DNA from: Lancefieldella parvula
GTDB lineage: Bacteria; Actinomycetota; Coriobacteriia; Coriobacteriales; Atopobiaceae
NCBI RefSeq assembly: GCF_963530955.1
Contig: NZ_CAUSFQ010000001.1
Span: 1 to 57,879, forward strand
Reading direction: 5' to 3'
DNA: 57,879 nt
Positions within the stretch are counted from its first letter, which is position 1; the number at the start of each line of letters is the position of its first letter. The position numbers and the translations under genes are program-made. Of the stretch, positions 2,936-7,422 are shown one piece after another. A model generated the notes under the pieces. The model was not told where the DNA came from. It saw only the letters and a program-made list of their open reading frames with translations, and did not search any database.

Positions 2936-3319
2936 ATGGATAGTCACTCCCACGATTCCGAAAAATGCGAGCACACTCATTCTACGTGCGATTATGTTTC
3001 TGATCAGAAGCTGAATGAATACCTGGTAAACGATGACATCATCTACGATGCAACCCAGATTTTTGATGCACTGTCTGATTTCACTCGATTCCAGATTTTG
3101 GGTGCTCTAGTAAATGGCGAGAAAAGCGTAACAGAGCTGCAGGAAATGCTTTCGGTATCTCAGTCAGCAACCTCTCACCAGTTGCGTCTTTTGCGCGACC
3201 GCGGTCTTGTCAATGCAAAAAGAGATGGCAGAAAAGTTATCTACTCACTTGCAGATGAGCACGTCACAACGCTGATTCGCGTTGGCCTTGCACATGCAGC
3301 TCATCTGTTGGGTCATTAA
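2936..3319 (+). CDS. ArsR/SmtB-family metal-sensing transcriptional repressor
   Basis: HTH (SVTELQEMLSVSQSATSHQLRLLR); alpha5 site D-x-H-x10-H-x2-H (DEHVTTLIRVGLAHAAH); His/Cys-rich N-terminus. Confidence 0.92.
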   Translation: MDSHSHDSEKCEHTHSTCDYVSDQKLNEYLVNDDIIYDATQIFDALSDFTRFQILGALVNGEKSVTELQEMLSVSQSATSHQLRLLRDRGLVNAKRDGRKVIYSLADEHVTTLIRVGLAHAAHLLGH

Positions 3320-3348
3320 CATACGTTTCGGAACTGTGGAGAGAACTT

Positions 3349-4023
3349 ATGGGTGAGTATCGCATCATTGAAGTTAAGCAGAGTGTTTTTGCAGCTAACG
3401 AGAAAAGCGCCGATCAACTAAGAGAAGAAATGAAGAAAAAGGGAACTCTGCTGGTAAACCTTATGTCTTCTCCAGGTTCTGGCAAAACTACCACCCTTAA
3501 AAAGACCATTGCTGCCCTGAAAGATAAGGTTTCCATTGCTGTTATGGAAGCTGATATTGATTCAGATGTTGATGCTGCTGCTATTTCAGAAACGGGCGTG
3601 AAAGTCATTCAGCTGCATACTGGCGGCATGTGTCACCTCGATGCGCATATGTGCGCTCAGGGTCTTGAAGGTCTCAATGCAGGTGATGTGGACCTTATCT
3701 TTTTAGAGAACGTTGGGAACTTGGTATGTCCGGCAGAGTTTGACACCGGTGCCGGCGTAAACGTCACTATTCTTTCTGTTCCCGAAGGCGACGATAAGCC
3801 GTTGAAATACCCTTTGATGTATCAGGTCTGTGATGTGGTGCTTGTTAACAAAATAGACGTAGCACCGTATTTTGATTTTGACCTGGAAAAACTCAAGGAA
3901 AATGTGGCCCTTAGAAATCCAAAGGCGGTTGTTATTCCTTTCTCTGCCAAAACTGGGGAAGGATTAAACGCTTGGACTGAATGGCTTTCTCGCAAAGTTG
4001 CTGAGTGGAAAAGCAGTCAGTAA
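3349..4023 (+). CDS. hypB: Nickel-insertion GTPase HypB
   Basis: SSPGSGKTT P-loop, GGMCHLDA, ENVGNLVCPAEFD, PEGDDKPLKYP, NKID. Confidence 0.95.
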   Translation: MGEYRIIEVKQSVFAANEKSADQLREEMKKKGTLLVNLMSSPGSGKTTTLKKTIAALKDKVSIAVMEADIDSDVDAAAISETGVKVIQLHTGGMCHLDAHMCAQGLEGLNAGDVDLIFLENVGNLVCPAEFDTGAGVNVTILSVPEGDDKPLKYPLMYQVCDVVLVNKIDVAPYFDFDLEKLKENVALRNPKAVVIPFSAKTGEGLNAWTEWLSRKVAEWKSSQ

Positions 4024-4070
4024 CCAATAGCTAGCGCTTAAAGAATGTCTTATGCCTGATAGGAGAGGTC

Positions 4071-7000: not shown

Positions 7001-7076
7001 TAAGCCTCAGTCACACGTAACAACCGATGAGCTTGGTAATCCCGTTTCTGCGGGCAGTACGGGAATTTCAAGTTAA
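4071..7076 (+). CDS. Multi-domain Fe-S flavoprotein (GltD/PreT-like FAD/NAD(P) oxidoreductase with N-terminal Cys-rich domain and ferredoxin motifs)
   Basis: CSCR...ICNCNVNVC, CVACGGCVEVCP, PCKVACP, CGRVCNKRCEAAC, GAGPAG (FAD), GGGNVA (NAD(P)), ARCLKC, CIGCGLCTTRC. Confidence 0.88.
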   Translation: MAEEVPARKTPKGQNAMRGSLTDEEIARRNVLPTTNPAGGPTRILAQNHITENDEVVHYKTVDPNEPGPASSEQFKPLVRDEVQKITSRLGHKIVKDDPEYWGIAAIMTEEEAAVTKYMKVRQPVTLEELCKRTGKTAGELQPILDTLSVKGMIEYNWENKSKQKQYVLPMFVPGSAEFTVMNERQLEEHPEMGSLFERMTYLPLKNVTKLVPEGGAGVGMHVIPVERSIEQVNHTVTVEHISHWLKKYDRYAATPCSCRLAERVRGDGCADDPEDWCLAIGDMADYCVETGKGHYITYDEVIDICTKAEKNGFVHQITNIDGEDKIFAICNCNVNVCYALRTSQLFNTPNLSRSAFVAHVDEEKCVACGGCVEVCPAGAPQLGQKLPTRKGKISYPTQDLPDDKFWGESDWDWNYKNNNRIECHDTGTAPCKVACPAHISVQGYLRMAAEGRYRDALELIKKENPFPAVCGRVCNKRCEAACTRGTIDQAVAIDDVKKFIAQKDLEAEHRFIPEPVIPSNRGRFNQKIAIIGAGPAGLSCAYYLAERGYNPVVFEKNLLPGGMMVYGIPSYKLEKNVVAAEIDVLKEMGVEIRCGVEVGKDITLDELRAQGFIGFYVAIGCQGGRKANIAGEDADGVISAVDFLHFVTEHPLHEVPGKTVVIGGGNVAIDAARVSARCGSESVTMVCLEQPDEMPALPEEITEAQEDGVSIKNGWGPAFIATDEQGHVCGVMFKRCMRVFDNDKRFSPCFDDEQTMYLEADAVVLSIGQTVEWGSLLEGEAVELTRGNFARADSQTYQTAQPDVFVGGDVYTGPRFVIDAIAAGHEAAVSLHRFVQKGSSLTIGRNQRHYVELDKSDAAVESCGYDHAGRQRSACDSVKNIRHNWTDPSHTFTPEQIRIETARCLKCGASIVDANKCIGCGLCTTRCEFDAIHLFRDNPHCSDMVAAEHKAGKILSYVGKRAVKIIKNPARKTKTPKPQSHVTTDELGNPVSAGSTGISS

Positions 7077-7077
7077 C

Positions 7078-7422
7078 ATGCATGAGCTGGGAATTGCGTT
7101 TTACCTCATAGATATGGTTGAGGACCTGGGAAAACAGAACAACCTCACCTCAGTTGCACGTGTAAAGTTGCAGCTAGGGGAGGTATCTGGAGTTGTTCCA
7201 ACGTATTTGTTGGATGTATGGCGTTGGGCAGCTGATCGCACGGAGTTGCTACACGGAGCTCAGCTAGAAATTGAAGAAGTGCCAGCTCTAACACAGTGTT
7301 TATCGTGCAATAAAACGTACGCTACGGTAACGTATGGTCGCACATGCCCTTACTGTTCTAGCGAGAAAACAGAACTCATCCAAGGCTTAGAAATTGAGCT
7401 TGCTGAGATTGAGGTTACCTAG
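7078..7422 (+). CDS. hypA: Nickel metallochaperone HypA
   Basis: Starts MHE (Ni-binding N-terminus) 1 nt after upstream stop; CLSC and CPYC zinc motifs. Confidence 0.95.
   Translation: MHELGIAFYLIDMVEDLGKQNNLTSVARVKLQLGEVSGVVPTYLLDVWRWAADRTELLHGAQLEIEEVPALTQCLSCNKTYATVTYGRTCPYCSSEKTELIQGLEIELAEIEVT

Follow-up and report, generated by a model that had tools for sequence, protein, structure and literature searches.

A HypA/HypB pair travels with an IsrA-like iron-sulphur flavoprotein in Lancefieldella parvula and probably supplies it with nickel

Why would a bacterium in which no [NiFe]-hydrogenase can be recognised keep hypA and hypB, one on either side of a gene for a large iron-sulphur (Fe-S) flavoprotein? 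HypA and HypB are a nickel-insertion pair, and HypC-F build the Fe(CN)2CO moiety of hydrogenases. The question is raised by a stretch of 57,879 nucleotides (nt) from Lancefieldella parvula (positions 1 to 57,879 of contig NZ_CAUSFQ010000001.1, assembly GCF_963530955.1), here called the window, which belongs to a genome of 1.42 Mb in 134 contigs that is 90.1% complete, a figure to be kept in mind with every negative result for the host genome below. In the window, an arsR-type regulator gene, hypB, the gene for a flavoprotein of 1001 amino acids (aa) and hypA follow each other on the plus strand with intergenic gaps of 29, 47 and 1 nt (Table 1). A sequence-only reading of this stretch had described the same co-directional cluster, with which the coordinates of the open reading frames (ORFs) agree, and had proposed that the flavoprotein is the client of HypA and HypB and an undescribed nickel-dependent enzyme. 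Our comparative analysis makes it probable, taking the account as a whole, that the cassette encodes a reductase of the IsrA family together with its own HypA/HypB metal-insertion pair, with nickel bound at a six-cysteine site (Cys6) of the flavoprotein. IsrA, from Acetobacterium wieringae ISORED-2, is a protein of 901 aa described as a putative isoprene reductase (Kronen et al. 2023, mSystems, PMC10134865).

The arrangement is found well beyond Lancefieldella. A contig scan recovered at least 595 related loci, and in the best 80 of them the neighbouring genes were sought by tblastn with the window proteins. Both genes always lay on the strand of the flavoprotein gene: hypA was present at 74 of these 80 loci, in 70 cases no more than 300 nt downstream of it, and hypB at 44, in 41 cases no more than 300 nt upstream. 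The 80 loci come from Atopobiaceae, Collinsella, Oscillospiraceae, Lachnospiraceae (Blautia hansenii and Agathobacter rectalis among them) and Treponema, and so from three phyla; linkage of hypAB with the flavoprotein gene is far beyond chance, and the conservation in other genomes on which the sequence-only reading had made its proposal depend is plainly there. The regulator differs by lineage, being GntR (divergent) in Clostridia and Treponema, TetR in Collinsella and ArsR in Lancefieldella, and a DUF5692 gene accompanies the loci of Clostridia, Treponema and Collinsella and none of those in Lancefieldella. What stays constant across lineages is the core of flavoprotein and hypA, usually with hypB.

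Two observations on these loci stand apart from this argument. DUF5692 (PF18948, 451.6 bits in locus L049) adjoins the hypA-flavoprotein pair at 26 of the 80 loci and may be a transporter; it was not found in the host genome, but the control genomes gave no match either. A contig titled Paludibacteraceae bacterium (L019) carries an Atopobiaceae-like hypB-flavoprotein-hypA set at 72% identity, with a HypA that groups with those of Atopobiaceae, and is either mis-binned or the product of a recent transfer.

The association also holds at the level of whole genomes. Among 45 host genomes of related loci, HypD was present in 11 and a clear urease alpha subunit in 4 others, which leaves 30 without either. 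Of the 34 hosts without HypD, 29 had hypB next to the flavoprotein gene; of the 11 with HypD, 5 did, a difference that fits the idea that hosts owning a hyp operon borrow its HypB. A sample of Clostridia gave the sharper picture: 300 genomes were scored (one further genome was not scorable), and the flavoprotein was counted as present where residues 84-360 of its N-terminal domain (N-domain) were matched at an E-value up to 1e-10. HypA was detected in 50 genomes and the N-domain in 19, all 19 of them HypA-positive, and the N-domain occurred in none of the 250 HypA-negative genomes. Of the 50 HypA-positive genomes, 28 had HypD above its cut-off: 21 of them HypD alone and 7 the flavoprotein as well. 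The flavoprotein without HypD was present in 12, and 10 had neither of the two. When only strong, full-length HypA matches are considered, 40 genomes remain, 28 with HypD and 19 with the flavoprotein (7 with both), and none is left over; in other words, a strong HypA without HypD was found only where the flavoprotein is present (12 of 12). Two hypA copies were found in 6 of the 7 genomes that have both HypD and the flavoprotein.

The ten Clostridia genomes with neither partner were considered as counter-examples and rejected: in all of them the HypA match is weak and begins only at profile positions 4-7. One of these orphans was translated (genome G182, L104:5985-6338; type of about 117 aa): it keeps the two CxxC motifs, has no Met-His-Glu, and lies beside acpS/yjeF-type genes in a genome with no HypD and no IsrA-like flavoprotein. 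A second (G341, L107:6015-6368) was compared by ORF lengths and has neighbouring, unannotated ORFs of the same lengths and order; the other eight were not inspected.

The HypA sequences themselves divide along the same line. In a maximum-likelihood tree of 61 sequences, a single branch parts the 39 that are linked to the flavoprotein (18 from the Clostridia sample and 21 from other loci) from the 22 that come from HypD-positive genomes, with an ultrafast bootstrap (UFboot) of 96 and a Shimodaira-Hasegawa-like approximate likelihood ratio test (SH-aLRT) value of 76, and one change suffices in 96% of the bootstrap trees. Gene order in three phyla, co-occurrence, the HypA lineage and the behaviour of the four genes as one cassette (see below) all argue for the flavoprotein as the client of HypA and HypB. 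This much of the sequence-only proposal has gained ground, and its other half, nickel itself, is unproven.

The proposed client combines a familiar electron-transfer half with an N-terminal region of its own. Pfam matches are confined to Pyr_redox_2, Fer4_20 and Fer4, and residues 1-330 have no family match among the Pfam and NCBIfam profiles. Residues 418-938 comprise a Fer4_20 two-cluster domain followed by FAD and NAD(P)H domains. NF009410 gives 436.9 bits, under its cut-off of 516, and because the whole-protein NCBIfam models all stay below their cut-offs, the flavoprotein belongs to no named NCBIfam enzyme family. Relatives are nevertheless plentiful: 7991 were scored, the best 120 being 961-1136 aa long and 64-100% identical to the window protein, save one at 53%, and Lancefieldella rimae ATCC 49626 has an 80%-identical copy in the same gene order.

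All six cysteines of the Cys6 site are invariant in 15 close homologues. Across 33 diverse sequences, down to 26% identity, C257, C259 and C278 are invariant, and C331, C333, C338, R260, E310, H316 and N332 are each kept in at least 90%. An AlphaFold model of residues 1-420, built on the alignment of those 33 sequences, has a mean predicted local distance difference test (pLDDT) of 70.8, with values mostly of 80-98 for residues 70-350. Residues ~74-191 are modelled as a winged helix with VIA-align Z scores of 7-8 to ArsR/MarR-type proteins, values usual for common folds; Foldseek with the whole N-domain model returned no match at an E-value of 0.001 or better, and only this winged-helix subdomain was matched, by VIA-align. 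The Cys6 subdomain folded alone (residues 195-360, mean pLDDT 70.7, the first 40 residues poor) found no convincing relative in the PDB, with a best Z of 3.8 and a best Foldseek E-value of 0.73, values that do not in themselves prove the fold to be new, and an ESM Atlas feature search with the same residues returned only same-family fragments and generic ferredoxins, at scores below 0.9. The N-domain family is large, with 1995 representative clusters at E-values up to 0.001, and stand-alone forms of 300-400 aa are among them. A complex prediction for HypA with the flavoprotein N-domain scored 0.00, which is below the mark and counts neither for nor against binding.

The two maturation proteins keep the motifs that metal insertion would call upon. 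HypB matches TIGR00073 with 260.3 bits, above the equivalog cut-off of 121.2, and shows a GSGKT P-loop, Cys95-His96, Cys127 and NKID; it is without the N-terminal high-affinity metal motif. HypA matches PF01155 with 102.2 bits (cut-off 28.9). Its frame was listed as 7027-7422, but the PF01155 match starts at residue 18 of this longer frame and all 21 aligned homologues have an MHELG start in common, and for these two reasons the true start is the ATG at 7078. The Met-His-Glu (MHE) N-terminus that results, and two CxxC motifs (C74xxC77 and C90xxC93), are invariant in 21 of 21 aligned sequences. Judged by its sequence, the window protein is a divergent HypA. We take the MHE of HypA and the Cys-His...Cys of HypB to be the nickel sites of the characterised proteins. 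The regulator matches NF033788 with 90.3 bits (cut-off 55) and also PF01022, and reaches no equivalog cut-off; it has a His- and Cys-rich N-terminus and a C-terminal D-x-H-x10-H-x-x-H pattern, presumably an alpha5 metal site.

On the account that we favour, in which nickel as the metal, Cys6 as the place where it sits, the way the electrons run, the class of substrate and the signal sensed by the regulator are all inferred, HypB, which is a GTPase and has a Cys-His...Cys metal site, would load nickel onto HypA. The MHE N-terminus of HypA would form the nickel site, and HypA would then hand the metal to the N-terminal domain of the flavoprotein, where the six invariant cysteines, two CxC pairs and two more, may build a nickel-bearing Fe-S centre. 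NAD(P)H would reduce the FAD of the GltD/NfnB-like module, and the electrons entering there would run through the two Fer4_20 and the two ferredoxin-type [4Fe-4S] clusters to the Cys6 centre. A small substrate would be reduced at this centre, perhaps, by analogy with IsrA, at an unactivated C=C bond. HypCDEF would not be needed, because no Fe(CN)2CO group would be made. The ArsR-type regulator of the cassette probably couples expression to metal availability.

Several observations weigh against this account. In 6 of the 80 loci no hypA was found in the fetched flank. The support of 96/76 for the branch in the HypA tree is good, yet under the tool's 'starred' level, and because HypA is a short protein and relatives among the genomes do not count as independent cases, the phyletic counts and the tree are indicative and their statistical weight is overstated. 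The window HypA also falls under the NCBIfam equivalog cut-off (TIGR00100, 62.2 vs 88.1). In 2 of the 34 hypB-bearing genomes of the genus, hypB has an internal stop: it is split in two at a TGA in G055 (C1:1373584-1374215, a single-contig genome) and contains a TAG in G014 (C1:31185-31817), which points either to a module decaying in some lineages or to errors of sequencing. No nickel importer was recognised in the host genome, where CbiM had no match and the best NikA-like match reached 127.8 bits against a cut-off of 393, and NicO exceeded its cut-off in 1 of 61 sampled genomes of the genus, the host not among them. In the literature found on the IsrA family, namely the 2023 article and two 2026 preprints on Pelotomaculum, there is no nickel measurement or enzyme biochemistry for any member, and CxC motifs can hold ordinary Fe-S clusters, as in ferredoxin:thioredoxin reductase, according to PMC10134865. 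As a separate observation, the sole NicO above the cut-off in the genus sample is carried by a short contig, in a genome that has no module (G065:C125:12-797), and could be contamination.

HypA and HypB might mature the flavoprotein without nickel being its catalytic cofactor, by inserting zinc or iron or through GTP-driven assembly of an all-iron Cys6 cluster, for which double-cubane, P-cluster-like and [4Fe-4S]-plus-disulfide forms are candidates. The co-occurrence described above shows a functional tie and says nothing on which metal is involved, and both the unrecognised nickel importer and the sub-threshold HypA score speak for this explanation. PMC10134865, besides noting that CxC binds ordinary Fe-S clusters, compares the site with P-type or double-cubane clusters. 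Set against this is the conservation of the maturation proteins themselves: the nickel-binding MHE is invariant in all 21 flavoprotein-linked HypAs, HypB keeps its Cys-His...Cys, and the one translated HypA-like orphan that is unlinked to the flavoprotein (G182) has lost MHE. We hold this explanation to be unlikely.

A different explanation would leave nickel in place and change the client: HypA and HypB might serve another, unrecognised nickel protein, or nickel storage and homeostasis, the flavoprotein being a co-regulated neighbour. The sequence-only reading had noted that the window holds no gene for a hydrogenase, HypC-F, urease or carbon monoxide dehydrogenase (CODH), and for the families searched this absence extends to the whole genome. 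There were no matches in the host to PF00374 ([NiFe] large subunit), PF00346 (Complex1_49kDa), PF01924 (HypD) or TIGR00143 (HypF), HypC and HypE not being searched, and none to PF00449 (urease alpha), PF03063 (Prismane/CODH) or PF09861 (LarA), glyoxalase I not being searched; control genomes gave matches for each client and maturation family that was searched. PF00374 is likewise missing from all 61 sampled genomes of the genus, in which HypA exceeds its cut-off in 33, HypB in 34 and both in 31, the five mismatches being fragmented assemblies or contig ends. The hydrogenase or urease elsewhere that might have accounted for hypAB did not turn up in this 90.1%-complete genome. Another client could still be small and nickel-using, such as glyoxalase I, which was outside the search, the operon is headed by an ArsR/SmtB metalloregulator, and the HypAB of Helicobacter are known as shared between clients. 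The regulator, however, varies between GntR, TetR and ArsR while the hypA-flavoprotein pair is constant, strong HypA without HypD occurs in Clostridia only with the flavoprotein, in all 12 cases, and a dedicated HypA lineage tracks the flavoprotein. We think it improbable that the flavoprotein is a bystander.

The distribution of the four genes within the genus is in keeping with the preferred reading, in which they form a functional unit around the flavoprotein. The flavoprotein was found in 12 of the first 25 genomes of the genus, either whole or broken off only where a contig ends, and at 96-100% identity; 16 sampled genomes of the order outside the genus had the GltD-like part only, at 28-38% identity. 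Three module-less genomes (G019, G009 and G024, each 99% complete) have rpoC, then an intact arsR, then the GNAT gene. Compared with G019, the window is 100% identical to about position 2820 and 65-79% identical through the promoter region and arsR, and homology to the module-less genomes returns at 7505. The short frame that follows hypA has no Pfam match and, when translated, differs very little from the C-terminal end of the intact ArsR in G019 and G024. The simplest reading of these alignments is that a 4.7-kb arsR'-hypB-flavoprotein-hypA unit took the place of the 5' part of a resident arsR, the direction of gain or loss being unproven. The alignments do show that the four genes come and go as one unit, at a single site between rpoC and the GNAT gene. 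The idea that arsR is a mere resident neighbour was rejected, as the cassette comes with a diverged arsR and what remains of the resident gene is its 3' end. The hairpin 3' of rpoC is probably the rpoC terminator, which would mark the left edge of the cassette. Although the host genome and the genus sample lack a hydrogenase and hypB is interrupted in 2 of 34 genomes, it is scarcely credible that hypA and hypB are functionless relics of a lost [NiFe]-hydrogenase system, given intact frames with all metal motifs, 32 of 34 genus hypB copies free of internal stops, the same gene order in three phyla and genes that move with the flavoprotein as one cassette.

Table 1. Features of the locus; positions are counted from the first letter of the window.
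Feature	Position	Strand	Basis
14-nt inverted repeat then T run, 3' of rpoC	2801..2833	+	arms 93% complementary; unlisted in consensus terminator scan
Presence/absence cassette of ~4.7 kb, arsR-hypB-flavoprotein-hypA	2825..7504	+	comparison with module-less genomes of the genus
ArsR/SmtB-family metalloregulator, 127 aa	2936..3319	+	NF033788, PF01022
Left copy of 148-nt direct repeat, 3' part of cassette arsR	3158..3305	+	74% identity between copies
HypB, nickel-binding GTPase, 224 aa	3349..4023	+	TIGR00073
IsrA-like Fe-S flavoprotein, 1001 aa	4071..7076	+	Pfam/NCBIfam layout, motif positions
Winged-helix subdomain, residues ~74-191	4290..4643	+	model, VIA-align
Cys6 site: C257-S-C259, C278, C331-N-C333, C338	4839..5084	+	conserved Cys; proposed Ni/Fe-S catalytic centre
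First ferredoxin-type [4Fe-4S] motif, C366/C369/C372/C376	5142..5213	+	PF00037/PF12837 at residues 358-381; Cys invariant in 15 close homologues
GltD/NfnB-like module, residues 418-938	5322..6884	+	PF14691 (Fer4_20), PF07992 (Pyr_redox_2), NF009410
C-terminal ferredoxin-type Cys motifs, C905/C908/C918/C921/C924/C928	6783..6872	+	invariant Cys in 15 close homologues
HypA nickel metallochaperone, 114 aa, flavoprotein-linked lineage	7078..7422	+	PF01155, tree clade
Remnant of resident arsR (3' end only), 61-aa frame, right repeat copy 7507-7654	7477..7662	+	translation comparison

The surroundings of the cassette are rpoC on one side and, on the other, a GNAT gene, a CPBP protease gene, rpsL, rpsG and fusA; a scan for promoters and terminators gave counts not above those of shuffled sequence. 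The rpoC frame (57-2750, its 5' end lost at the window edge) has a C-terminal PF03118 match (E-value 1.8e-8, residues 755-805 of the partial frame), and this alpha-CTD-like extension seems normal for such rpoC genes because NF011498 matches the partial frame over its full length. Two long antisense frames are probably spurious: one of 909 aa, without a Pfam match, at 9508-12237 on the minus strand, antisense to rpsG and fusA, and an open-ended one of 709 aa at 3-2129 on the minus strand, antisense to rpoC.

If the flavoprotein does receive nickel, the consequences would reach beyond this locus. Few classes of nickel enzyme are known, and the literature already holds the IsrA family to be a candidate for one more. 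We know of no characterised flavoenzyme that reduces an unfunctionalised C=C bond, the reaction proposed for this family. Tentatively, the family may be read as such a new class, in which electrons from NAD(P)H serve to hydrogenate unactivated C=C bonds at a Ni-Fe-S centre, and in which that centre is installed by a dedicated pair of HypA and HypB, with no part for HypCDEF. Were this so, the cassette would be a transferable respiratory or detoxifying trait in roughly half the species sampled from the genus. Isoprene is abundant in exhaled breath, and from such general physiology one might think of it as the substrate in an oral commensal, a suggestion that we find very doubtful. Homologues at 47-49% identity exist in Acetobacterium strains that PMC10134865 reports as not reducing isoprene, and for that reason isoprene is not transferable as the substrate to the window flavoprotein. 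What can be said is that the family and a private HypA/HypB pair occur in a small-genome human oral genus without hydrogenase, where they are present or absent between species, and that the nickel claim is directly testable in cultivable carriers such as L. rimae ATCC 49626.

How does the cassette compare with systems already described? The closest structural precedents for the C-terminal half are NfnB, GltD and dihydropyrimidine dehydrogenase (4ylf_B, 5jca_L, 6s6s_G and 1gt8_A, and the fusions 9bov_A, 8oh5_C and 9n5u_A), which a PDB profile search aligned with positions ~427-927 at E-values from 1e-58 to 1e-112, and which have in common with it two [4Fe-4S] clusters and the FAD and NAD(P)H domains. 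The N-terminal 420 residues of the flavoprotein, in contrast, are covered by none of the 13 matched chains, and to our knowledge no association with hypAB exists for these enzymes. With the HypA and HypB of hydrogenases, and of Helicobacter urease, the window proteins share family membership and metal-binding motifs, but their host has no HypD, HypF or hydrogenase and their HypA falls in a separate, MHELG-starting lineage.

For the Cys6 site, the comparison that suggests itself is the A-cluster of acetyl-CoA synthase, a Ni-Ni-[4Fe-4S] centre with a Cys-Gly-Cys nickel site. The two sites are alike in having six cysteines with a Cys-x-Cys tripeptide, a resemblance drawn in PMC10134865; acetyl-CoA synthase was not among the matches listed for the Cys6 subdomain model (mean pLDDT 70.7), which counts neither for nor against the likeness.

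The system to which the cassette comes closest is IsrA itself. The N-terminal region of IsrA, some 270 residues long, is without annotation, and Fer4_20 and FAD/NAD(P)H domains follow it. CxC motifs stand at 180/182 and 254/256 as part of a six-Cys 'cluster V', and ferredoxin-type sites at 289-300 and 848-877 (PMC10134865). The operon of IsrA is isoprene-induced and, besides one hypB and a ferredoxin gene, holds hypA twice; with isoprene, IsrA, HypB, one HypA and the ferredoxin rise 6-11 log2-fold in A. wieringae, whose genome is described there as without [NiFe]-hydrogenase and hypCDEF (PMC10134865). For a Pelotomaculum enrichment, a preprint (10.64898/2026.02.25.708027) gives transcript increases with isoprene of ~373-fold for hypA and ~585-fold for hypB. 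Across 988 IsrA homologues, HypA is nearby in 73%, HypB in 56% and TetR in 21%, and DUF5692 co-occurs at a frequency of 0.4 (PMC10134865). In the same source, IsrA is proposed as the target of nickel delivery, with the Cys6 'cluster V' as a possible nickel site, and biochemistry is said to be needed. The family, its linkage to hypAB without hydrogenase and the idea of a nickel target were thus all in print in 2023 (PMC10134865), and the word 'undescribed' in the sequence-only reading has to be given up.

The window protein has the same domain layout, from unannotated N-region through ferredoxin-type site, Fer4_20 and FAD/NAD(P)H domain to C-terminal ferredoxin-type site. The CxC pairs lie 74 residues apart in both proteins (257/259 and 331/333 in ours), five positions, the four CxC cysteines and the start of the first ferredoxin site (289 vs 366), are offset by a constant +77, and the C-terminal Cys motifs of the window protein correspond to the second ferredoxin-type site of IsrA. 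Common to both are hypA and hypB in the operon, a HypB without the N-terminal metal motif and a host without [NiFe]-hydrogenase (hypC and hypE were not searched here). On the strength of the shared architecture and the constant offset of motif positions we file the window flavoprotein as a putative member of the IsrA-like 'clade 9' family, an assignment made from the published description and not from direct sequence comparison. The differences are some 77 extra N-terminal residues of low model confidence in the window protein, a single hypA instead of two, no 350-aa ferredoxin paralogue, an ArsR-type regulator, and a host that is an oral Atopobium/Lancefieldella and not an acetogen. The comparative evidence gives good support to the reading of the flavoprotein as the client of HypA and HypB and so strengthens a hypothesis that itself dates from 2023, nickel in the protein being a proposal. 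Beyond the published neighbourhood statistics, what is new here is that no flavoprotein was found without HypA, that the strong HypAs are all explained by HypD or the flavoprotein, and that the HypAs linked to the flavoprotein form a lineage of their own.

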